Both the position numbers and the translations under genes were made by a program. Positions 2,687-42,771 of a stretch of DNA of 47,009 nt are shown here, piece after piece (position 1 is the first letter of the stretch; each line of letters starts with the position of its first letter). Source of the DNA: Candidatus Sumerlaeales bacterium (lineage in GTDB: Bacteria; Sumerlaeota; Sumerlaeia; Sumerlaeales; Sumerlaeaceae); contig JBBSQY010000024.1 in the NCBI GenBank assembly GCA_038243585.1, positions 1-47,009 on the forward strand, written 5' to 3'. Below the pieces are notes generated by a model. It was not told the origin of the DNA, did not search any database, and saw only the letters and a list, made by a program, of their open reading frames with translations.

Positions 2687-4066
2687 TTGTATTTGGTACT
2701 TACTGCTGAACCAGGGAGTACTACTATTAAAACTCGCCAGCTATCTCGCCGTTCCTTCCTCCAAACCGCTGCAGGTCTCGTGGCCGCGCCTTATTTTATT
2801 CCCTCTACTGTTCTGGGAAAAGACGGCGGTGTTGCCCCTTCCAACCGAATTACCATGGCGCAGATCGGACTCGGCGGCCAGGGTAGTTATCATCTAAGAG
2901 TTCAAAGCAAGCGTAAGGACATCCAAATAGTTGCCTTGTGCGACGTAGACCGGCGTCATCTGGATCGCGCGCGCGAAACCATGAAAGATGCTGGGGTTGC
3001 CGATGCTGGAGTAGAATACCACCAGGATTTTCGCCGGTTGCTGGATTCCAGGGACCGCTTTGACGCTGTCCTGATCGCAACGCCAGACCACAGCCACGCT
3101 ATGGTGACCATCGCCATGTTAAAAAACGGCAAAGACGTTTACTGTGAAAAGCCGCTGACCCGGACTATCCATGAAGGACGAGTCGTATCCGACACCGTGG
3201 CCCGCTATGGCCGAGTGCTTCAAACCGGCAGCCATGAACGTTCCAATCGCAAGGCCAGATATGTGGCGGATCTTGTCCGCAATGGCTACCTGGGTAAAAT
3301 CGACCGGGTGGAAGTAAGTCTTCCGAATACCAGTCATAACCGCCTTGCCATGCAGGAACCTTCCGACCCGCCGTCAGAATTGGATTATGATCTATGGTTG
3401 GGTCCGGCCCCTTACAAACCGTATTTCGACGCGGGACGCAAAGATGACATACTGAAAATTCCGTTGGAAAGATGCCATTTCTGGTTCCGCTATCAGCTCG
3501 ACTATGCCACCGGAGAAATGTCTGATCGTGGTGCCCATGTCCTTGATCTCGTCCAGATGATCCTGAACAAGGACAAGACAGGCCCTGTGGAAGTCTCAGC
3601 TCGAGGCGAAAGCAACGTGGACAGCGAATTCAACACGTTCATGAAATACGATTTCGATATCAAGTATGATGACGGCGTTACCGTTCATGGCTCGAGCCTG
3701 GGAGATGACGACTCGCGCGGTCTTAAGATTTTCGGAGAAAACGGCTGGATCAACGTTCACATCCACGGGTGCGCATTGACGGCGTCCGACCCTAAGCTGT
3801 TGGAGATTAAGCTGAAGCCAAGTGACCAGACGGTAGGGCGCGTAGTCAGTCATCACGACGATTTCTATGATGCCGTTCGCCACCGTGGAGACACCGTTGC
3901 CAGCGCGGAAACGGGACATCGCACTGCTTCAATCTGTCACATGGCCACCATCGCCATGCAACTGGGGCGCCCGCTAAAATGGGATCCGGTAAATGAGCGG
4001 TTCCTCAATGACAGCGAGGCAAACCGCTACCTGCATTACACATACCGCGAGCCGTGGACGCTCTAA
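2687..4066 (+). CDS. Tat-exported Gfo/Idh/MocA oxidoreductase (true start may be ATT at 2726)
   Basis: SRRSFL twin-arginine motif, IGLGGQG, IATPDHSH, DVYCEKP, DYDLWLGPAP. Confidence 0.9.
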   Translation: MYLVLTAEPGSTTIKTRQLSRRSFLQTAAGLVAAPYFIPSTVLGKDGGVAPSNRITMAQIGLGGQGSYHLRVQSKRKDIQIVALCDVDRRHLDRARETMKDAGVADAGVEYHQDFRRLLDSRDRFDAVLIATPDHSHAMVTIAMLKNGKDVYCEKPLTRTIHEGRVVSDTVARYGRVLQTGSHERSNRKARYVADLVRNGYLGKIDRVEVSLPNTSHNRLAMQEPSDPPSELDYDLWLGPAPYKPYFDAGRKDDILKIPLERCHFWFRYQLDYATGEMSDRGAHVLDLVQMILNKDKTGPVEVSARGESNVDSEFNTFMKYDFDIKYDDGVTVHGSSLGDDDSRGLKIFGENGWINVHIHGCALTASDPKLLEIKLKPSDQTVGRVVSHHDDFYDAVRHRGDTVASAETGHRTASICHMATIAMQLGRPLKWDPVNERFLNDSEANRYLHYTYREPWTL

Positions 4067-4165
4067 GCCAAACGACCCTGGGTTTTAAGTTTTAGATTAG
4101 CATTTGTTTACAGATTGATTATTGTCCTGCATTCCTGCTGAGTTGTACCCCGAGACTACAAATGC

Positions 4166-4206
4166 AAAAAGCCCTTCCGGCCTGATGAGCCGGAAGGGCT
4201 CTTTAT
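4166..4206. terminator. Intrinsic terminator between convergent genes, probably bidirectional
   Basis: 12-bp stem AGCCCTTCCGGC/GCCGGAAGGGCT, A-tract on the left, CTTTATT on the right. Confidence 0.8.
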
Positions 4207-4243
4207 TAGCTTCTTGTTTTGTGATTCAGACTAACCGCACCGG

Positions 4244-5338
4244 TCAGGGTTTTACATACCGGACCGCATCGGCCACAACCACGTATCCGGTGGTTGTCCA
4301 TACGGATAGCTTGGTGGCTTTGTTGCCGGCGGTGAGGCTTACATTGCCAAGGCTGTTCCACTGACCACCGCTGGACTGCTGATTCCGCGACACTGTTACG
4401 CCATTAGGCAGGATGTACGGAGCAGTTGCGGAGCGATTGCTGCCCTGGGCCCACCAGGCTGATATGGTATATGTGCCGGGGATCGTAATGTTGGCGTTCC
4501 ATGTGGCAGAGTCACTTAACGCAGCAGTGCTGCGGAAACGGTAGTTGCTGCCATATTTATCAGCGGCAGAACTTCCAGTGCTCCAGTTTGTGGAAGCCGA
4601 AAATCCTGAGCTGCTGTTGTCGACAACGATGGTTGCAGAGCCGCCGCCACCGCCACTTGTCAGGTTCTTCGTAGTCCATCCGAAGGCGTCAAAGTAGTGA
4701 TCTACAATCCACTGATAACCCATTCCACGGTTGGAGGCCCAGCGCTGGGTGCCCCACTGACACATACCACGGCCGTGGCCGTTTTGGGTGTAACCGCAGC
4801 ATACGGAATCGCTAAGGCACACGCCGTCGCCCGGAGCGTTGGAGATGTAGCAGTTGCCACAACCGTCTCTGTTTCCCGAATCATTGTTTTCCGCGCTATA
4901 CTCAGCGCGAACAATGTTGTCGTTGCCATCTACAACATACTTCCCGGCTGTAGCATCGACAGCGTTGTTCGTGCTCGTATACTGGGTCGTAGTATATTTC
5001 TGGCAACAGGTGGTGTCGCAAATGTCATAGGTTGAAGTTTTGGGATGATATACGTGCCACGCGCCATAGCTGCGAATGGCGATGGCGCCTGCTTTTAAGG
5101 ATTCTGCGTGCCAGCCAGAGATCCATTCAGCTGGCAGCACCCGTTTAACGTAGGTTTCCATGCTGACGGTGACGACGCTGCCGCAAGATGAGCAACTGCA
5201 GTTGCGTCCGACGCGAATGCTCGTAGGCGCGGGGTTCGCGGCAGAGACCTGAGCGGTAAAGGATGGGACAATACCGAGAACCATAATGCCGGCGAGAGAG
5301 ACGTTGCGCCAGGCGGATTTGAAGAAGTTGAATTTCAT
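4244..5338 (-). CDS. Exported SpoIID/LytB-domain peptidoglycan hydrolase-like protein with C-terminal golvesin/CBM-like domain
   Basis: Signal peptide; ETYVKRVLPAE..W..ESLKAGAIAIRSY, DICDTTCCQ.Y, GHGRGMCQWG; Gly linker then IVVDN...GGQWNSLG...VVADAV. Confidence 0.85.
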   Translation of the reverse strand: MKFNFFKSAWRNVSLAGIMVLGIVPSFTAQVSAANPAPTSIRVGRNCSCSSCGSVVTVSMETYVKRVLPAEWISGWHAESLKAGAIAIRSYGAWHVYHPKTSTYDICDTTCCQKYTTTQYTSTNNAVDATAGKYVVDGNDNIVRAEYSAENNDSGNRDGCGNCYISNAPGDGVCLSDSVCCGYTQNGHGRGMCQWGTQRWASNRGMGYQWIVDHYFDAFGWTTKNLTSGGGGGSATIVVDNSSSGFSASTNWSTGSSAADKYGSNYRFRSTAALSDSATWNANITIPGTYTISAWWAQGSNRSATAPYILPNGVTVSRNQQSSGGQWNSLGNVSLTAGNKATKLSVWTTTGYVVVADAVRYVKP

Positions 5339-18569: not shown

Positions 18570-19064
18570 ATGACAAGACATGCCCGAAAACGGCAGATGA
18601 TTTCCATTATGTTTCTTGCTGTTATGGCGGTTAACTTTGGAGCGGAAGGATTTTCCCTCTACTCCGCCCATGGCTTCGCCTTGTTTGAATCTGCAAAATC
18701 GCGTCTCTGTTCCGTGCCGGACGGCCCCGCCTCCTGTTGTGCAGAAAAACCGGCCACCGCCTGTGGTTGCCCGTGTTGTGGTGACAGTTGCCCCATGGGC
18801 GATGCCTGCACCTGCGGCGACGACGGCAAGTCCAAAGCGTTTGCCGGAGGGTTGTTTTTCCAGATGCCGGGTTGTCATCCCGACCAGGCAGCGCATAACT
18901 CTTCTTATCTTCCATTGTCTATGAGACTGGTTTTTCTAGAGGCGACGAAGCTCCCTCCAGGAATGGATTTTCCTCAGCCGCACATCATCGATTCGCGTGC
19001 GGGCCGGCCTGGTGTCCTATTACCGCCGCCGCCTGTTCCCCCTCCGAGGTACGCTACCGCCTAA
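18570..19064 (+). CDS. Small exported Cys-rich protein with C-terminal poly-proline motif (DUF2946/CutF/CruR-like architecture)
   Basis: Basic then hydrophobic N-terminus; CC..CGCPCCGDSCPMGDACTC cluster; ends LLPPPPVPPPRYATA. Confidence 0.65.
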   Translation: MTRHARKRQMISIMFLAVMAVNFGAEGFSLYSAHGFALFESAKSRLCSVPDGPASCCAEKPATACGCPCCGDSCPMGDACTCGDDGKSKAFAGGLFFQMPGCHPDQAAHNSSYLPLSMRLVFLEATKLPPGMDFPQPHIIDSRAGRPGVLLPPPPVPPPRYATA

Positions 19065-19151
19065 GAGCGGCCTTCCCCAGCGTAACCTTGACCGGATGCC
19101 TCTTAAGCAGGGGTCCGGCTACCAATCTCATACAATTCAGGAGTAACACAG

Positions 19152-20039
19152 ATGCCTCACGCCCAAAATCGGGTATTGCGGCGGATGATTGTGCCTGCCC
19201 TTGCGGTAGCATTCGCTTGCGCGGGCACGTCCGCCCACGCCCATTTACACTGGAGCCGCGTAAACACCGTGGATTCCGATACCATCGCCCTTTACCACTT
19301 CGACGACGCCACAACTGTGGCCGCGCCACCCTCATTGCCTCTTCCGCTCGGACTTGGTTTAACATCAATCGCCGCGGGCATACCACTGTCACCGACGACC
19401 GACACCCCCGGTGCCATTTTCACCCCCCAGGCGCTTGCCCTGCCGACTGCTCAGACCCTCCGCAGCACTGATACCATATCCCAGCTTGCGGGCGATCTTA
19501 CCATAGAATGCTGGTTTAAATGGACACCAGAAATGACATCCTCCACGCTGGAAATCGGGCTGCAATCCGGGGCGCGGCTCGTCGTAGCTCGGGATGAGGT
19601 AACCCCGGCCAACGACCGCTTCGGTATCGCGGGCACCCATGGTTCTTATCTTTCCGCGCCCGGGTTCACCAGTTGGGTCGATGTCGGATACGAGGAGGCA
19701 TCGCTGAACGAATGGCGCCACCTGGCACTAACCATTCACTCCACAGGGATCCATTACAACCCCGCGTCGTCCCATGATGTATACTCGACAGGCACAGTGG
19801 GGCGTCTCTATCTGAACGGTCATCCCACCGGCTCTTTCCCCCATTCGTTTGACCTTGCGGGGCTAAACGTCCACGATGCTTCGCGCGTAACGGTGGTCAT
19901 GCGCGGCGGGGAAATGGTTATTGATGAGCTGGCGGTCTGGCGGCGGGATTGGTCGGCCAACGGTGTCAATACTAACCCTTTCGCGAACGGCCGCGGTGTG
20001 GAATCCAGCGTGACCGGGTGGCTTGATTACCGTGAGTAA
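19152..20039 (+). CDS. Exported LamG/concanavalin-like jelly-roll protein with terminal VxGWxxY motif
   Basis: SD AGGAG; signal ending AHA; DTIALYHFDD, LTIECWFK, EWRHLALT, RLYLNG, IDELAVW; ends SSVTGWLDYRE. Confidence 0.8.
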   Translation: MPHAQNRVLRRMIVPALAVAFACAGTSAHAHLHWSRVNTVDSDTIALYHFDDATTVAAPPSLPLPLGLGLTSIAAGIPLSPTTDTPGAIFTPQALALPTAQTLRSTDTISQLAGDLTIECWFKWTPEMTSSTLEIGLQSGARLVVARDEVTPANDRFGIAGTHGSYLSAPGFTSWVDVGYEEASLNEWRHLALTIHSTGIHYNPASSHDVYSTGTVGRLYLNGHPTGSFPHSFDLAGLNVHDASRVTVVMRGGEMVIDELAVWRRDWSANGVNTNPFANGRGVESSVTGWLDYRE

Positions 20040-20070
20040 TCTCGGACGCAACAGAACGGAGGGCCGGGCG

Positions 20071-20649
20071 GTGTTGCCCGGCCCCCTTTTTCGAGCGTTT
20101 ACTTTAATCGAGCTGTTGGTGGTGGTGTTGATTCTGGCGTTGCTGGCGGCGATTGCAGTGCCGAACTTTCTGCTGGCGGGAACACGAGCGCGCGTTTCAC
20201 GAGCCACCGCGGATCAGCGGGCGCTCGCCACCGCTCTGGAGTCATACGCAATCGACGCCAGCGGCCGCTATCCCGCATATGGCAATCCGCGCGACCGCGC
20301 TCTATTTGCCGGAGAGCCCATAGTGTTTGTGCCGACGCGCCTTACAACTCCGGTGGCCTACATTAAACAGTTGCCTCCCGACATTTTCCCCGGTGTCAGA
20401 TCCGGCATCGCTAACGATTATCAGGACACGTACTTTTTCATGAACGACTACGCCTGTGTCTACCTCGGAAAGACCCAACCGCAGGGTCACGTGCAGGAGC
20501 ATTACCATTCGCTGACAGGAGGCACGCGAGCCGCGCACTGGACAATCTGGAGCTATGGCCCGGATTTGAAAGACAACCACGGCACCATAATGTACGACCC
20601 CACAAACGGAACAGTTTCAAAAGGAGACCTGATGCGCTTTGGGCCGTAG
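20071..20649 (+). CDS. Prepilin-type N-terminal methylation protein (type II secretion pseudopilin, GspG-like)
   Basis: RA|FTLIELLVVVLILALLAAIAVPNF, ALESY.ID, RLTTPVAY, WSYGPD, YDPTNGTVSKGD; GTG 20071 has SD GGAGG (ORF open from 20023). Confidence 0.88.
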   Translation: MLPGPLFRAFTLIELLVVVLILALLAAIAVPNFLLAGTRARVSRATADQRALATALESYAIDASGRYPAYGNPRDRALFAGEPIVFVPTRLTTPVAYIKQLPPDIFPGVRSGIANDYQDTYFFMNDYACVYLGKTQPQGHVQEHYHSLTGGTRAAHWTIWSYGPDLKDNHGTIMYDPTNGTVSKGDLMRFGP

Positions 20650-37294: not shown

Positions 37295-40200
37295 ATGCGA
37301 TCGCTCATTCGGGCATTTACTTTTATTGCAGTTGCGGCGTTTAGTATCCAATTTGGAACGAACTCCTTCGCGGTTCAGCCGGCCGTGAGCTTTGAGGAGG
37401 TTGTTCAGACGGCGGACCTCATATTTTCAGGACGGGTAACACACCTGGAAAATGTAATTGTTGGTGCCGCTGCCTTTACAGAGGTAACTTTTGCCGAGGT
37501 GGAAACCATCGAGGCCACTTCCAAATCTCGCCAGAAACATCAATCCGCCGTCAAACTCCGGTACGCTGGAGGACAAATCGGTGATGAAGTGCTCAGCGTT
37601 TCAGACGCTCCGCGGTTTCTTGCCGGACACAAGTATTTGATCTGCATGTTAGATGACAAGAATACCTATCTTAACCCAATTGTGGCCGGCCCACAGGGCT
37701 ATTTTGAAATCATTGAAGATGTTGCAGGCGACGCGGAATACGTCGTGAACGCGGCCGGGAAAAGCGTGCTCGGGATTACCGACAAAGGTGAGCTTACTCT
37801 AAGTGTCGGCAAGCTGGAATACGTGGGCAACGGAGTCGCGGGATATGCGCCGCCTCCTGCCGAAGCGGGTATTGAGACTCGACCTGCAGTGTCCGAGGAT
37901 GGCCGAGCGGCAGAGGTGTCGAATCTGAAGACAAAAGACTTAGTGCACCCACCTATTCTCCTCGAAGATTTCAAGCGAGCCATTCCCGCTAACGTATCCC
38001 GCAAGCGATCCGGCGAGCCACGACTTAAGCGGGGCGACGAACGCGGCGGGAAATTCTATACCATGGAAAATGGAAAGCTGGTGGGCCGTGATCTGGCAAC
38101 AACGATGACCAGAGAAACGGATTTCCAGTCGACCAACGACTTGGGGTTTGACGAATCAGAACAGCCGTCCCCGCCGTCGTCAGTTGGACCGCGAGGTCAG
38201 ACATTAGCGCCGTGTGGTTCCCATGACCTTTTTTTAATCATGGAAGATGTGCCGAATACTACGCCATGGGCCATGGAGTACAATGTCGACCAAAGCTGCA
38301 TGTCCTTGTACAACCAGTATATGGACATCTTCCGAGTCGGCATTAGTAATGGCGTTGGAAACAATTCCGAAAATGAGTTTGGTGGCTATCCGGATAGCGC
38401 CACTCTAGCCAGTCGCTACGGCATAGCCTTTAGTTGGGGCACATCGCTGGGAGTTTGTTTTACGTCTCGGATTTCCACTGCCGCCTGCGCCAAGATCATC
38501 CAATCCGACATTTACTGGAATCCCGCTTACAACTACTCAGAGGATCCAAACATCTGGTGGAACAGTAACAACATTTTCTGTATGCGCCAAATTACTGTTC
38601 ACGAACTGGGTCACGCGTGGGGCTACCAGGTCGGTGTCGCGGAACAGTACGACTACGATCAGCCGAGTGTGATGCATTCTGTATACAGTGACATTTATGA
38701 AACAGGTAAAGGCTTGCACGCGGAGGACGCCAGGCTGTTCCGCAACCTTTACAGTATCAAGACCGGCATAAAGAACATTCGAGACATAGGTGCGGAAGGT
38801 TACTATGCTCTAAATGGACTAAATAAGTCAGGCATCAACAAGCTGACCTTTGCCCGTGGAGAAGCCATGGACTTTACCAATGTCACCGTGGAAAACATGA
38901 GCAATTCCGACGTGAACGATGTAAAAATGCGATTCTACCTATCCACGAAGAGAGATTTTTCAGGTTCTGCATACCAGGTAGGGAACACATGGAGTTGGAG
39001 CACGTTTAATAAGGAATCAAGAAGCGTAGGGAACTATGCGGGGAACACCATTCCCCAGAACGTACCCCCTGGAACTTATTATGTCCTCGTTGACGCTAGT
39101 ATCAACTTCAACGGCGACGACTACAATGAAAACAACACCGGCGTATTTTCTGACCGCGTTACTATTTTCGCTCCCAGTATTGGCGTGTCTCCCCCACTTA
39201 CCAAAAACATTAATCAAGGGCAAAACGCTTCAGCCGACCTTATTTACATAGAGAATACTGTTTCAAAAAGCGGAGTCATGAACTACTCTCTTGCAGTGAG
39301 TTATGGCGGATCATCAAGTGGTTGGTTAAATATATCCCCCATGAGCGGCAGCTGCACTACAGAATATGATCCAATCAACTTAAACTTTTCGACAGCAGGC
39401 CTGTCGCCCGGAACGCATACGGCGACGATCTCCGTTTCCTCGCCGGAGGCAACTAATAGTCCCCAGACCTGTTTAATAACTGTAAATGTCGCAGCGGTTC
39501 CGACGCTGTCGCGTACCCCATCAACCATCACTCGCAATATTACAGGTGGAACGAATGCTTCGACGGATACTTTTGAGGTTTGGAATTCGGGCAATTCCAG
39601 CGCTCTATCGTACACTATTTCAGACGACGTAAGCTGGTTGAGTGTCAGCCCTTCAAGCGGAACTTCAACTGGCGCACATCAATTTCATACAATTTCCTAC
39701 AACACCAGCGGGCTTAGCCAGGGAAACTACTTTGCCACGATAACAATATCTTCTCCGGGAGCATCTAATCCATCATCAAGTATTCTTGTTTTTATGAATG
39801 TGGCGGCGCCTGTAACCAATCCGACAATTTCACGAACTCCTGCAACCTTATATCCCTATGCAGAGCAAGGGCAGAATGCGTCTTCAGAATCATTCGAAGT
39901 ATGGAATTCAGGCAATACAACCGCCCTTTCCTATAATATTTCGGACAATGTTTCTTGGCTAAGTGTTAGCCCTGGGAGCGGCATTTCGTCCGGAATTCAC
40001 CAGGTTCACCAGATCACCTACAGCACCAGCGGCCTCGCACCCGGCGGCCACACCGGCACTATAACAATTTCGGCGCCAGGGGCTACTAACCCAACTACAG
40101 TGATAGATGTAGCGTTATATGTGAACGCAAATATGACTCCTACATTGTCTGTTACCCCAACAGGAATTTTCAAATTTTTTGAGCAGGGTCAAAACGCACC

Positions 40201-40879
40201 AAATAGCACATTTAAAGTTTGGAACTCGGCCAATTCCACTCCTATGCCGTACAGCATTACTGATAATCAGCAATGGATGAGCGTTAGCCCGGCAAGTGGG
40301 ACCGCCTCATCTTCGCAACAGATACTCACTGTCACCTATGATACAGCAGGCCTTTCAGCAGGCAATTACAGCGGAACGATTACTGTAAACGCGCCTAATG
40401 CGACCAACACGTCTTCCAATATTTCTGTCAGTTTAACTGTTAACCCTTTGCCAGCCCCGCCGAATGACAATTTGGCCAACGCTATTAACCTTACAGGCGA
40501 AAATGGCACAATAACCGGGTCAAATGTTAACGCAACCCGAGAGACAAATGAACCCATTATCTTTTCAACGGCGCCAGGAGGTGCGTCCGTATGGTGGTCG
40601 TGGACAGCACCAATCACGGGTTCTGCTATTTTCGATACGTTTGGCAGCTCTTTTGATACTCTTCTTGGCGTTTATATTGGCAACAACTACCCTCTATTTT
40701 TCGTGGGCGACAACGACAACTTCGGAGGTACGACCAGTTATGTCAACTTTCAGGCAAGCATTGGGACTACTTATAAAATTGCAGTAGACGGATTTGGTGG
40801 TAGTACGGGAAACATTATCTTGAATCATGCAGTGACGCCAAACACCAGCCTCGTACCCGACTGGGCTATGTATGAGTAG
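37295..40879 (+). CDS. Large exported modular zinc-metalloprotease-like protein (prodomain, HExxH, CARDB-like domain, BACON-like repeats) with terminal VxDWxxY motif
   Basis: Signal peptide; HELGHAWG...SVMH; FYLST...PPGTYY...NENN; four W[LM]xxSP.SG repeats; PPNDN.ANA domain; ends TSLVPDWAMYE. Confidence 0.85.
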   Translation: MRSLIRAFTFIAVAAFSIQFGTNSFAVQPAVSFEEVVQTADLIFSGRVTHLENVIVGAAAFTEVTFAEVETIEATSKSRQKHQSAVKLRYAGGQIGDEVLSVSDAPRFLAGHKYLICMLDDKNTYLNPIVAGPQGYFEIIEDVAGDAEYVVNAAGKSVLGITDKGELTLSVGKLEYVGNGVAGYAPPPAEAGIETRPAVSEDGRAAEVSNLKTKDLVHPPILLEDFKRAIPANVSRKRSGEPRLKRGDERGGKFYTMENGKLVGRDLATTMTRETDFQSTNDLGFDESEQPSPPSSVGPRGQTLAPCGSHDLFLIMEDVPNTTPWAMEYNVDQSCMSLYNQYMDIFRVGISNGVGNNSENEFGGYPDSATLASRYGIAFSWGTSLGVCFTSRISTAACAKIIQSDIYWNPAYNYSEDPNIWWNSNNIFCMRQITVHELGHAWGYQVGVAEQYDYDQPSVMHSVYSDIYETGKGLHAEDARLFRNLYSIKTGIKNIRDIGAEGYYALNGLNKSGINKLTFARGEAMDFTNVTVENMSNSDVNDVKMRFYLSTKRDFSGSAYQVGNTWSWSTFNKESRSVGNYAGNTIPQNVPPGTYYVLVDASINFNGDDYNENNTGVFSDRVTIFAPSIGVSPPLTKNINQGQNASADLIYIENTVSKSGVMNYSLAVSYGGSSSGWLNISPMSGSCTTEYDPINLNFSTAGLSPGTHTATISVSSPEATNSPQTCLITVNVAAVPTLSRTPSTITRNITGGTNASTDTFEVWNSGNSSALSYTISDDVSWLSVSPSSGTSTGAHQFHTISYNTSGLSQGNYFATITISSPGASNPSSSILVFMNVAAPVTNPTISRTPATLYPYAEQGQNASSESFEVWNSGNTTALSYNISDNVSWLSVSPGSGISSGIHQVHQITYSTSGLAPGGHTGTITISAPGATNPTTVIDVALYVNANMTPTLSVTPTGIFKFFEQGQNAPNSTFKVWNSANSTPMPYSITDNQQWMSVSPASGTASSSQQILTVTYDTAGLSAGNYSGTITVNAPNATNTSSNISVSLTVNPLPAPPNDNLANAINLTGENGTITGSNVNATRETNEPIIFSTAPGGASVWWSWTAPITGSAIFDTFGSSFDTLLGVYIGNNYPLFFVGDNDNFGGTTSYVNFQASIGTTYKIAVDGFGGSTGNIILNHAVTPNTSLVPDWAMYE
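39170..40450 (+). repeat. Four tandem ~106-aa BACON-like Ig repeats within the CDS
   Basis: F[EK]VWNS...Y.I[ST]D...W.SVSP.SG.....Y.T.GL..G.....IT...P.A.N recurs about every 320 nt; the first copy is more diverged. Confidence 0.8.
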
Positions 40880-41016: not shown

Positions 41017-42771
41017 ATGAAAAGGGTATTCCGGTCCCCTTATTTTGCTAAGGTCATTGCACTTGTATTGTGGCTTACGATACTGGTTGTCCCTTCATAT
41101 GCCCAAACTGTGGCAAACGCCCCCTGGTTTTCCCGCCGGGTGGGAGTTGGGGTTGAGTGGAAACATTATCAGTTTGAAAACCTCTACGGCAATCGGCAAA
41201 GCATAAGCCTTGTCATCGCCGATCTTAACGCCCCCGGCGTCCAGGTGAAAATTCCGTATCTCCCGGCAACTCGACAGCGCATCAGCGCCATGATTCCGGC
41301 GCAATTTCCTAATGCGGTGGCCGGCGTGAACGGTTCATTTTTCGACACATCCGCTGGCGGCGGCGGATCCACTACATTTCTTCGTATCAACAACCAGATT
41401 ATAACTAATAACGACAATTCCGGGGAAGCTCTCCTGGGTGCCTTGACAATAGAAGCTGATGAGGACGTCCGTGTTCAAGCGAGGCCTTCCGGCGGCTGGG
41501 TCGGCGTCACCAACCGACGAGACATCCTTGTGCAGGGCCCGCTGCTTCTCCGGAACGACCTGCGTCAGCCCGCTGACTCCAGTTTCTGCACCGCCCGCCA
41601 CCCCCGAACCTTTGTTGGAATCACCATCGACAACAAGCTGATTCTCGCTACGGTCGACGGCCGCACGCCCCAGTCTGCCGGCATGACCTGCACGGAAATG
41701 CAGACGCTGATGATAGACCTGGGCTGCGACGACGCCACGAACATGGACGGGGGCGGCTCATCCACCATGTGGGTCGCGGGAGAAGCGTACAGTGGCGTCG
41801 TAAATTATCCCAGCGACAACGGCAGGTATGATCACATTGGCGAACGTTCGGTCAGCAATGGCATTGCCATTATCGCCAATCCGCCGCCGCCCGTCTCCAT
41901 CGATGCCCGGATTTTTAATACTGTCCAATCCCGGGTAATGACAGAACTAACCACCCAGGCTGTTACGGTGCGTTACACCAATATCGGCCAGACTACATGG
42001 ACCCCACAAACGGTTTCCCTGAACGTCACCCGCCCAACAACGCGGCAAAGCGTATTTCAAGACCCCACATGGGTTAGTACCATGAGACCAGCGGTTCTGA
42101 AGGAGTCCTCTGTGCCGCCCGGCGGCACTGGGACGTTTAACTTTGTCGTTCGCGCTCCAGACGTGCAAAACACTACTTCTTTTGGAGAAACCTTCGGTCT
42201 TGTTCATAGCACCCTGGGCAGCTTTGGTCCTGCGGACAACGAGCCGCGCCTGGAATTTGTGGTTTCACCGCCAGACATGCCAGCCACCGGACAGGTAATT
42301 ATCGAATCCCGCGAAGGCGGAAAAAATTACTCCTGGTATAAAGAAACCGTGGGCGCATGGGCCGACGTCAACACTAATGCCTCCGCGCCCGGTCTCACCC
42401 CCGGCATCGGCCAGCGCTACGCGTCCTCCTATCGCTCTGTGGCTGGGGCCAAGCACGCCACCTTCACTCCAAACCTGGCGAACGCAGGTCTTTATGACGT
42501 GGATATCGTATACGGGGACGCAGGCAACTTCGCCCGTGCCCCGATTACGTATGAAGTCCATCATGCCGGCGGCACTGCACGAGTTCTATTAGATCAAACC
42601 CAAAACAAAAATGGCTGGATAGCGCTTGGCCGCTATAGCCTTAAAGCAGGCGAGACCGGGTTTGTCGAGATCAACAATGATAGTATTGACGTAAGCGGAA
42701 ATTTCTACAGCACCGCAGCTCGCTTCACCCCCGTTCCTGCGGCGGCGGTCAATGAATGGAGCTTATACTAA
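41017..42771 (+). CDS. Exported phosphodiester glycosidase (NAGPA/DUF2233) with Ig-like and golvesin-like domains and terminal VxEWxxY motif
   Basis: GVNGSFF, GP.LL, RHPRT.VG, TVDGR...SAGM, A.NMDGGGSSTM, ERSVSN; ends AAAVNEWSLY; SD AGGAG. Confidence 0.88.
   Translation: MKRVFRSPYFAKVIALVLWLTILVVPSYAQTVANAPWFSRRVGVGVEWKHYQFENLYGNRQSISLVIADLNAPGVQVKIPYLPATRQRISAMIPAQFPNAVAGVNGSFFDTSAGGGGSTTFLRINNQIITNNDNSGEALLGALTIEADEDVRVQARPSGGWVGVTNRRDILVQGPLLLRNDLRQPADSSFCTARHPRTFVGITIDNKLILATVDGRTPQSAGMTCTEMQTLMIDLGCDDATNMDGGGSSTMWVAGEAYSGVVNYPSDNGRYDHIGERSVSNGIAIIANPPPPVSIDARIFNTVQSRVMTELTTQAVTVRYTNIGQTTWTPQTVSLNVTRPTTRQSVFQDPTWVSTMRPAVLKESSVPPGGTGTFNFVVRAPDVQNTTSFGETFGLVHSTLGSFGPADNEPRLEFVVSPPDMPATGQVIIESREGGKNYSWYKETVGAWADVNTNASAPGLTPGIGQRYASSYRSVAGAKHATFTPNLANAGLYDVDIVYGDAGNFARAPITYEVHHAGGTARVLLDQTQNKNGWIALGRYSLKAGETGFVEINNDSIDVSGNFYSTAARFTPVPAAAVNEWSLY

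Follow-up and report, generated by a model that had tools for sequence, protein, structure and literature searches.

To our knowledge, leader peptides that arrest their own ribosome in response to an extracytoplasmic cue form a young field of study. Only CutF and CruR, both DUF2946 proteins, have been dissected in this respect, and the targets we know of for these two are metal transporters and oxidases. Here we describe a three-gene cassette of a Candidatus Sumerlaeales bacterium (phylum Sumerlaeota; GenBank assembly GCA_038243585.1, contig JBBSQY010000024.1) wherein the first gene, ORF1, may encode a leader of this general kind. It is located in front of a gene for a predicted secreted, lectin-fold protein (ORF2) and a gene for a pseudopilin (ORF3). 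The window, by which we mean the whole stretch of 47,009 nucleotides that was analysed, carries these three open reading frames (ORFs) on its forward strand, as can be read directly from the sequence.

The text of the available reports describes CutF as a protein with a signal peptide, a CxxxC motif and a C-terminal PPP motif that undergoes copper-dependent stalling during its co-translational export. The stall opens a stem-loop that masks cutO's ribosome-binding site, while elongation factor P (EF-P) counteracts it (10.1101/2025.02.05.636593; 10.1101/2022.11.11.516240). The published model also invokes disulfide formation and a pulling force exerted by the translocon (10.1101/2025.02.05.636593), and CutF is proposed to act only in cis while it is being exported. 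CruR carries a CXXC motif and a RAPP motif that are 45 residues apart (within one or two), and it brings about copper-responsive Rho-dependent termination (PMC9426467). According to the text of the same report by Roy et al., the fixed distance between CXXC and RAPP in DUF2946 proteins matters for regulation. RAPP and RGPP are experimentally robust arrest motifs that are enriched at the C-termini of small secreted proteins, and arrest peptides encoded upstream of protein-localisation genes are a known class (PMC12992588). For DUF2946 genes, neighbours of four classes are mentioned, namely efflux components, TonB-type transporters, copper chaperones and HupE/UreJ. No pilin appears among these neighbours in the text of those papers, the figures and main supplementary tables of which could list one. 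A search of full-text literature found no paper that combines an arrest peptide with a pseudopilin, and the combination of DUF2946 with pilin returned only a SignalP category label.

ORF1 (18570..19064, forward strand) encodes a Cys-rich protein of 164 amino acids with a PPP-containing tail, which we propose to be a cis-acting leader and sensor. The protein starts with MTRHARKRQ and continues into a hydrophobic stretch. AlphaFold2, supplied with the family alignment, predicts a helix over residues 2-46 (18573..18707) with a predicted local distance difference test (pLDDT) score of 85-98, and this helix is the sole confident part of the model. The basic N-terminus and the hydrophobic helix are as expected of an export signal, either a signal anchor or a signal peptide, and they suggest an N-in/C-out topology. 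A cysteine cluster follows at amino acids 55-82 (18732..18815), reads SCC...CGCPCCGDSCPMGDACTC and includes the CxxxC motif C70-G-D-S-C74. The sequence GCHP at amino acids 101-104 (18870..18881) contains C102, which is the last invariant cysteine. A spacer of constant length and unconserved sequence, comprising approximately amino acids 123-151 (18936..19022), leads to PPPPVPPPR at amino acids 152-160 (19023..19049), the proposed ribosome pause site, and only YATA separates this run from the stop codon. Codons for the prolines at 157-159 (19038-19046) contain the anti-Shine-Dalgarno string CCCCCUCCG. An earlier note on this DNA had pointed to the export signal, the Cys cluster, the GCH and the terminal PPPPVPPPR, with Pro codons at about 19022-19050. 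All of these were recovered from the sequence, as were the other sequence features that it had listed for the cassette.

There are ORF1 homologues in related genomes, so the worry raised at the outset that ORF1 might be unconserved has been answered. ORFs in two genomes of the same genus are 51% and 37% identical to ORF1, identity further out is 31-34%, and metagenomes provided 10 more homologues. A profile of 14 sequences compared with 1.84 billion proteins recovered 63 clusters at E<=1e-3, including 43 at E<=1e-10. These clusters are representatives chosen at 50% identity, and share less than 50% identity with one another. The 14-sequence alignment matched six genome loci and two short metagenome contigs. 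Three further matches from a genome search with the single protein (L006-L008) were weak or contained stop codons and do not belong to the family. The gene occurs as a single copy in 14 of the 75 genomes of the Sumerlaeota phylum. A second GTDB phylum, with genomes titled variously 'Omnitrophota' or 'bacterium', also has it, in 5 of 35 genomes. No Pfam or NCBIfam model matched ORF1, and a search of PDB sequences with the family profile gave two chance matches only (E>=1). ESM Atlas offered CzcI and DUF6769 (0.90) as leads that hmmscan did not confirm, and the nearest ESM Atlas clusters are unnamed. From these comparisons, ORF1 looks translated and is a real, conserved protein that belongs to an undescribed family of putatively exported, Cys-rich proteins.

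Members of this family range in length from 136 to 303 amino acids. In the alignment of the 14 closer sequences, C57, C67, C70, G71, C74, M76, G77, C80 and C82 are invariant, and R8, L16, N22 and E26 are kept in at least 90%. The helix of this closer set carries the motif MAVNFxAEG, which includes N22 and E26 and is followed by SCC, and the predicted exported part carries CGCPxCGDxCPMGDACxC, GLFFxxPGCHP and YLPLSMRLVF. Across the 58 family members that were aligned, C74, G77, C82 and C102 never vary, and at least 90% of the sequences retain C67, C70, C80 and P157-P159.

A PPP sequence is located inside the last 12 residues of 57 of the 63 representatives, and the remaining six comprise one fragment and five proteins that keep PP or PxP. 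The typical tail is PPP[RKEQ] and then 2-9 residues before the stop codon. PPP is aligned in 53 of the 58 sequences. Likewise in 53 of 58, the distance from C102 to PPP is 51-56 residues (median 54) and that from C82 is 70-80 residues (median 74). Every column of the spacer has x as its consensus in both the 14-sequence and the 58-sequence alignment. The stretch ahead of the Cys cluster, unlike this fixed spacer, varies from 30 to 177 residues. A segment with fixed length and free sequence has the appearance of a ruler, and we consider it to be the most telling feature of the family.

The earlier note had compared ORF1 with leaders of the DUF2946 type. This likeness holds for the layout of export signal, Cys motif and Pro motif, but it does not extend to homology. 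The DUF2946 model PF11162 (cut-off 23.7 bits) gave no match to ORF1 at E<=1, no match at the ORF1 locus in a six-frame genome search at E<=10, and no match to any of the 58 family members at E<=10. An hhalign comparison of the family with five Sumerlaeota leaders of the DUF2946 type reached a probability of 13.8% and covered only 15 columns of the membrane helix. On the basis of these searches, membership of ORF1 in DUF2946 was rejected. One weak PF11162 match elsewhere in the same genome (C1:62103-62288) was set aside as noise because it lies antisense inside a larger gene. When ORF1 is held against the features of CutF-like leaders, it has C70-GDS-C74 and further invariant cysteines, with metal binding itself only putative, and it has PP within the last 15 residues. 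Its Cys-to-Pro distances from C102 and C82 are constrained as given above, where the CruR value is 45. At 164 amino acids it is longer than the limit of <150 that, according to the text of Ozturk et al. 2023, was used to filter for DUF2946-type leaders.

There are true DUF2946 genes in the phylum, and they are found at other loci. Two score above the PF11162 cut-off (L031, 26 bits; L032, 24.7 bits), two others are just below it (L034 and L035), and PF11162 matches four of the five aligned Sumerlaeota leaders at E<=1. All five of these leaders, which come from other Sumerlaeota genomes, are located directly ahead of a GspG-like pseudopilin gene: L031:1468-1788, L032:1486-1929, L034:1486-1788 and L035:1489-1851 on the reverse strand, and L005:65-394, a 109-amino-acid ORF, on the forward strand. 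Each has a CxxC or His-rich motif, and PRAPP, RGPP or RSPPP is found near the stop codon. The same genomic slot is thus filled by two families that share a layout but are unrelated, and this is the strongest contextual argument for considering ORF1 as a leader and more than a neighbour.

Gene order was examined at 20 distinct loci, one of which (L029) is cut by a contig end; L016 is a duplicate of the G092 type. At all 19 assessable loci the ORF1-family gene comes first, a same-strand gene follows within 1000 nt, and a GspG-like pseudopilin on the same strand is encoded by the first or second downstream gene. These pseudopilins end in ...NGTxSxGD...FGP or similar. The pseudopilin gene follows directly in nine loci (G064, G018, G068, G042, G037, G073, L012, L014 and L017). 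In seven others (G000, which is the genome of the window, and G002, G001, G008, G045, G050 and G071) a single gene for a lectin-fold protein with a predicted N-terminal His (His1) is located in between, and in three (L013, L015 and G092) the intervening gene encodes one FG-GAP/ASPIC protein of ~560-580 amino acids. The product of the intervening gene, which we call the cargo, looks secreted and is C-terminally tagged in all 10 of these loci. The pilin gene of G092 was sought only after the gene-order rule had been stated, and it was found and fits the rule. In the window, 87 nt separate ORF1 from the next gene, and across 15 loci this gap ranges from 37 to 208 nt.

Homologues of ORF2 are present in 8 of the 75 genomes of the phylum, and the locus of the eighth is cut by a contig end. 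In each of the seven assessable genomes, an ORF1-family gene is located directly upstream and the complete order of ORF1, ORF2 and pseudopilin is kept, so the three-gene cassette is more than a product of chance. The conserved synteny that the earlier note had named as a check is therefore seen wherever ORF2 can be assessed, but ORF2 is absent from 12 of the 19 loci and the pseudopilin is constant. Because the pseudopilin is found at 19 of 19 loci and ORF2 at only 7 of 19, it is the pseudopilin that accompanies ORF1 as its constant partner, and ORF2 counts among the optional cargoes, of which two were seen. The suggestion that the His-tipped protein is the conserved target of the leader thus had to be abandoned, as three of the other loci have an FG-GAP/ASPIC protein instead and nine have no cargo.

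Three observations concern the variety of these loci. At L046:637-2316 (reverse-complement orientation; genome G045) the His1 lectin-fold cargo has 559 amino acids and two tandem copies of the module, and its gene is still located between the ORF1-family gene and the pseudopilin gene. In genome G008 both leader types are found in a row (L005/L020), in the order DUF2946-like leader, pseudopilin, ORF1-family gene, His1 lectin-fold gene and pseudopilin. The genome of the window also encodes, at G000:C70:4628-5134 on the reverse strand, a putatively exported, His-rich ORF of 168 amino acids (...HVIFDEHETHYHGHNH...) that ends in ...GPPPQLRAPPAIS. It is located upstream of a gene (2891-4501, reverse strand) for a 536-amino-acid membrane-anchored protein with a His-rich tail, and it looks like a second, different proline-tailed leader of the same genome. 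A Pfam scan limited to its first 60 residues found no family at E<=0.1.

The computed observations comprise the family and its motifs, the spacer of constant length, the order of the genes and the presence of DUF2946 leaders in this slot elsewhere. From them we infer export of ORF1, pausing, a cue and an on or off direction of control. The best, if still tentative, reading of ORF1 is that of a CutF/CruR-like arrest leader that is co-translationally exported, senses metal or thiol state and acts in cis. ORF1 would be the leader of a three-gene transcription unit and would function as an exported nascent-chain sensor. Its N-terminal helix would direct the nascent chain to the Sec translocon, such that the Cys cluster and GCHP emerge in the periplasm. 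When the ribosome arrives at the PPP codons (19038-19046), ~54 residues would separate the last cysteine from the peptidyl-transferase centre, and this is roughly the combined length of the exit tunnel and the translocon. Perhaps the length of the pause on PPP is set by the state of the Cys cluster, which might either carry a thiophilic metal (copper, for example) or have its cysteines available for folding or oxidation. A paused ribosome would free ORF2's Shine-Dalgarno (SD) sequence because it would cover the proline codons with which that sequence is predicted to pair, and it could also shield the transcript from Rho. In this way, the pause would set the output of ORF2, with its N-terminal His and its C-terminal sorting tag, and of the pseudopilin ORF3.

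The RNA between ORF1 and ORF2 offers some support for this mechanism. The intergenic region (19065..19151) has 87 nt and contains a hairpin (19092-19118) and the SD sequence GGAG (19140-19143) of ORF2. In the minimum-free-energy fold of the window, this GGAG is paired with CUCC inside the PPP codons, and its partner is predicted at positions -2 to +1 of the third Pro codon. Pairing was surveyed at 15 loci with a GGAG-led downstream start, four further loci that have no such start being dropped, and 150 gene pairs of the same genome provided the background. The GGAG of the next gene pairs with the last 16 codons of the ORF1-family gene at p>=0.5 in 6 of 15 loci, compared with 24 of 150 in the background, and at p>=0.8 in 5 of 15 loci, compared with 8 of 150. 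For 8 of the 15 loci, among them the window and each of the other three Sumerlaeota triads that were tested (L010, L011 and L020), the best SD partner falls between -15 and +18 nt relative to the third Pro codon. This zone is inside the footprint of a ribosome paused at that codon. The recurrent RNA element predicted from these eight loci is thus an SD sequence paired with the proline codons of ORF1 or with bases just past its stop codon. In four of nine loci the pairing beats at least 97% of synonymous recodings. We consider the SD-masking helix to be plausible and recurrent, though not proven to be under selection.

The hairpin at 19092-19118, which the earlier note had singled out, does exist (-14.8 kcal/mol, z -2.6; only 3 of 200 shuffled sequences gave an equally good fold), but it has no counterpart in relatives. 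It was rejected as a regulatory element, being unconserved and located 45 nt past the PPP codons. The structure of the stretch 19030-19175 as a whole is not unusual (z -1.06), and Rfam gave no family for the intergenic region at E<=1. The ORF1 stop codon is located in the loop or stem of a small hairpin in the window (19053-19070; CCGC-CUAAGA-GCGG). Two loci of the same genus (L010 and L011) also have a hairpin at the stop codon, and the hairpin sequences are non-homologous. Rho prefers C-rich, G-poor RNA. The segment 19050-19500, which comprises the gap between ORF1 and ORF2 and the 5' part of ORF2, shows a greater excess of C over G than any other part of the region (GC skew -0.21 to -0.29). 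A CruR-like Rho mechanism is therefore conceivable, although the skew may merely reflect coding for Ala, Pro, His and Thr.

Several points weigh against an arrest leader that responds to metal. The SD partner is located elsewhere in 7 of the 15 loci. The pairing in the window is unexceptional, as 81 of 150 synonymous recodings pair as well, and selection for it in the window was not shown. It is also partly built in, because proline codons complement GGAGG, and much of the pairing survives synonymous recoding. No metal-homeostasis gene is present in any ORF1-family locus, which makes the cue a guess, and the family lacks sequence homology to DUF2946 in the PF11162 and hhalign comparisons. PPP pauses are normally relieved by EF-P, and the genome encodes EF-P. 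The exported part of ORF1 has a pLDDT of 52-70 and no secondary structure in the AlphaFold2 model. We counted this absence of a confident fold in favour of an arrest leader, but it may mean only that the fold depends on metal. In addition, ORF1-family proteins of 136-303 amino acids keep ~60 well-conserved exported residues along with the polar N22 and E26, and this is more conservation than a pure leader needs. Finally, the evidence is comparative and predicted throughout.

Such extensive conservation is compatible with a quite different function, in which ORF1 persists as a stable bitopic membrane protein and cooperates post-translationally with its pseudopilin. It might be a metal-binding factor for the assembly, docking or gating of one pseudopilus type, and its C-terminal polyproline might form a protein-binding (polyproline II, PPII) element in place of a pause site. 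The strict link to one pseudopilin subtype at 19 of 19 loci would suit such a partner, and the conserved polar residues N22 and E26, which stand at the helix end, might touch the membrane helix of the pilin. The exported motifs GLFFxxPGCHP and P.S..F.F are conserved, ORF1 is larger than most leaders as judged by the length filter of Ozturk et al. mentioned above, and within the exported part pLDDT peaks at the PPP block (86). Nevertheless, we hold this alternative to be unlikely. No confident fold is predicted outside the helix, and a spacer with constant length and free sequence suits a ruler better than a domain. Moreover, PPP is always 2-9 residues from the stop codon, unrelated DUF2946 leaders are found in the same slot, and the 37-208 nt gaps are structured and have a predicted masked ribosome-binding site.

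SecM, VemP and MifM monitor Sec, SecDF and YidC, respectively. ORF1 could similarly be an arrest leader with a non-metal cue that monitors export or oxidative folding, wherein disulfide formation or translocation of the Cys-rich segment provides the pulling force that ends the pause. The synthesis of pseudopilin and cargo would then be matched to the secretion or folding capacity of the envelope. The predicted exported segment of ORF1 does have ten conserved cysteines, the downstream genes encode export substrates (pseudopilins and tagged secreted proteins) rather than metal proteins, and nine loci have only the pilin and no candidate metal protein. As described above from the text of the published reports, the CutF model already includes disulfide formation and a translocon pulling force, and arrest peptides located ahead of protein-localisation genes have precedent. 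However, the Cys/Met/His make-up of ORF1 (CPMG and GCHP) points to metals, as do the DUF2946 leaders that fill its slot elsewhere. In ORF2, the predicted N-terminal His is invariant and six more His residues are nearly so, and none of the loci has a neighbouring Sec, YidC or Dsb gene. These points make a non-metal cue a rather improbable choice, and one that we rank just below the membrane protein.

An ordinary operon without leader function, in which ORF1 is a small secreted metal-binding or disulfide-rich protein whose proline tail and RNA pairing are incidental, would agree with a window pairing that any proline codons give, with the unconserved hairpin at 19092-19118 and with a leader function that rests on prediction, but it is very improbable in view of the PPP near the stop codon in 57 of 63 clusters of <50% shared identity, the fixed spacer length, the fact that the ORF1-family gene comes first at 19 of 19 loci, and the occurrence of DUF2946 leaders in its slot elsewhere. 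Readings of ORF1 as an anti-sigma factor, as a precursor of a ribosomally synthesised and post-translationally modified peptide (RiPP) or as a cytosolic metallothionein were dropped because there is no sigma factor or modification gene nearby and the cluster is predicted to be exported.

ORF2 (19152..20039, forward strand; ATG at 19152) encodes 295 amino acids and is predicted to be a secreted protein with a concanavalin-A-like (LamG/lectin) fold. A signal-like helix comprises residues 3-23 and is followed by A-H-A and then H-L-H-W-S-R-V-N. His31 is invariant in all 28 homologues, and the residue at -1 is A, S or G in all 28. Cleavage is predicted after AHA, and His31 would be the mature N-terminus. 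The earlier note had the mature protein begin with HLH. The first of these His residues is as conserved as one could ask, but His33 is kept in only 18 of 28 homologues, and therefore an N-terminal X-X-His copper/nickel motif is unconserved. Every one of the 28 homologues also has H190 and H224, and H49, H163, H208 and H241 are nearly invariant.

PF13385 (Laminin_G_3) scores 25.0 bits against ORF2 (E 2.4e-5), short of its cut-off of 27.6, and several homologues carry a precomputed PF13385 label. The AlphaFold2 model of ORF2 (pLDDT 87.7) is a concanavalin-A-like jelly roll, as is characteristic of the concanavalin A-like superfamily, with a disordered tail. Foldseek found 372 matches to this model at E<=0.001 with lectin-like domains leading, and the structural neighbours are carbohydrate-binding modules and lectin-like domains. 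The best VIA-align match is domain 4 of AbnA (Z 15.6, rmsd 2.9 over 187 residues).

The tail of ORF2 (amino acids 285-295; 20004-20036) is disordered in the AlphaFold2 model and reads SSVTGWLDYRE, which contains the VxGWxxY motif recognised earlier. Of the 28 homologues, 26 retain W290 and 25 have Y or F at position 293. This tail is apparently a weak copy of a tag, [S/A/T]-x-[V/A/I]-x-D-W-x-[L/I/V]-Y followed by at most one residue, that ends 62 of the 3,365 ORFs of at least 150 amino acids in the genome. When 10-40 terminal residues are removed, only 0-1 ORFs match. A hydrophobic N-terminal stretch is found in 60 of the 62 tagged ORFs, and the DWxLY-type tag looks like an undescribed sorting or secretion signal. 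The description of ORF2 as a sorted protein is thus partly borne out by its tag-like tail, but the tag is genome-wide and nothing special to the cassette. Tagged or tag-like proteins of the window are encoded on the forward strand at 37295-40879, 41017-42771 and 19152-20039, and three tagged proteins of the window were matched by no NCBIfam model. The tag is also present in related genomes (L010 and L011), and it is weakened in the second phylum (L013, L015 and L052). Eight of 63 tagged genes are located within 300 nt of a pseudopilin gene, whereas 2,000 random sets have a mean of 1.3 and none reaches eight. Correspondingly, 8 of 31 pilin genes have a tagged neighbour, in varying order and strand (for example C4:16908-20069, C11:7500-9871, C17:50277-54069, C26:7992-10377 and C33:8919-10439 of the same genome). 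Most tagged genes are still not next to a pseudopilin gene.

ORF3 (20023..20649, forward strand) encodes a GspG-like pseudopilin with FTLIELL from nt 20098 and the C-terminal end YDPTNGTVSKGDLMRFGP. Its start codon is either GTG at 20071, which has GGAGG ahead of it and is 31 nt past the ORF2 stop codon, in agreement with the distance of about 30 nt given earlier, or TTG at 20023, which overlaps ORF2. The prepilin motif is matched by PF07963 (23.2 bits, cut-off 21.2) and TIGR02532 (25 bits, cut-off 16.3). The GspG model TIGR01710 scores 50 bits, which does not reach its cut-off of 88.85, and ORF3 is for this reason classed as GspG-like and not as GspG. Its orthologue group is tight (54-76% identity). 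Besides EF-P, a single prepilin peptidase, three secretin ORFs and 31 prepilin-like ORFs were recognised in the genome, along with 18 matches to ATPases of type II secretion systems (T2SS) and type IV pili (T4P). We count the presence of this machinery in favour of the leader model.

The junction between ORF2 and ORF3 contains a GC-rich hairpin and then a CCUUUUU run (20058..20086), which together enclose the GGAGG and the GTG at 20071. This hairpin has a folding energy of -26.2 kcal/mol (z -3.8, with none of 200 shuffles as good) and was flagged as terminator-like. A match of the Rfam family mir-4449 to its 20058-20084 portion was below threshold and was discarded as a chance match. Comparable hairpins are found at the cargo-to-pilin junctions of L010, L011, L020 and L015. 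In L010 and L011 they are located within the leader codons of the pilin, and the stem sequences differ. The hairpin may serve as an attenuator, or it may couple the translation of the two genes and so set the ratio of cargo to pilin.

The widest reading of these data is that a new arrest-peptide family unrelated to DUF2946, together with true DUF2946 leaders, gates dedicated pseudopilins in Sumerlaeota and in a second uncultured phylum; this is possible, and we advance it with more doubt than the leader function of ORF1 itself. If true, nascent-chain sensing of metal or thiol state in the envelope would be tied to a pilus-like export or display system, the cargo of which is marked by a short C-terminal ...V-x-D-W-x-L-Y tag. 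A second, non-homologous family on the same plan of export signal, Cys sensor, tunnel-length spacer and proline stop would mean that this design evolved more than once, and the regulated targets would be extended to subunits of type II secretion and type IV filaments. It would also provide a first functional handle on the very large, unexplained expansions of pseudopilins in uncultured phyla, and likewise on a C-terminal tag carried by about 60 secreted-type proteins in this genome. The fixed 54-residue spacer amounts to a testable prediction on ribosome-translocon geometry. These prospects should be of interest to those who study arrest peptides and to those who study type II and type IV filaments.

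Each of the three genes can be compared with known systems. ORF3 shares with GspG the prepilin N-terminal methylation motif, and some databases name its relatives 'type II secretion system protein G'. Unlike GspG, it is located outside any gsp operon and is one of the many prepilin-like ORFs of its genome. For ORF2, PilC of Streptococcus sanguinis offers a parallel (Foldseek rank 3, E 7.9e-6; VIA-align Z 11.9), in that a lectin module is found near a type IV filament subunit. In PilC this module is grafted on a minor pilin, whereas ORF2 and ORF3 are separate genes, and domain 4 of AbnA is closer to ORF2 in structure. The histidine-brace copper proteins (lytic polysaccharide monooxygenases (LPMOs), CopC and YcnI) have His as residue 1, and this His, its N-terminal amine and a second His are arranged around copper. 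ORF2 resembles them in having an invariant His that is predicted to become residue 1 upon signal-peptide cleavage. Unlike them, ORF2 is predicted to have a concanavalin-A-like jelly roll, and its N-terminal segment is outside the aligned core, which begins at residues 35-41. A histidine-brace-like metal site is possible in ORF2.

ORF1 is similar to SecM, VemP, MifM, ApdA/ApdP and CliM in that these, too, are small proteins, either exported or membrane-bound, whose genes lie upstream of genes for envelope or secretion functions. Their arrest motif is at the extreme C-terminus. The motif of ORF1 is polyproline, a type that is EF-P-sensitive in CutF, whereas RAPP and RGPP arrest peptides carry R-A/G-P-P. 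With CruR (Bp2923) of Bordetella pertussis, ORF1 shares an exported upstream ORF, a conserved Cys-Pro spacing and a long gap before the regulated gene. CruR combines CXXC and RAPP at 45 residues with Rho-dependent termination and a TonB-dependent transporter target. ORF1 differs from it in having PPP[RKEQ], spacings of 54 and 74 residues and no match to the profile hidden Markov model (HMM). A parallel in layout is offered by CutF of the Rhodobacter capsulatus cutFOG operon, which is likewise the first gene and has a Sec-type signal, a CxxxC motif, PPP near the stop codon and an RNA structure that masks the next ribosome-binding site, this last feature being predicted for ORF1. The two proteins have no sequence relationship, and ORF1 is longer and has a cluster of ten cysteines where CutF has one CxxxC. 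The gene downstream of CutF encodes a multicopper oxidase, and those downstream of ORF1 encode a lectin-fold protein and a pseudopilin. Moreover, CutF uses a separate stem-loop, whereas the predicted masking helix of ORF1 uses the proline codons themselves.

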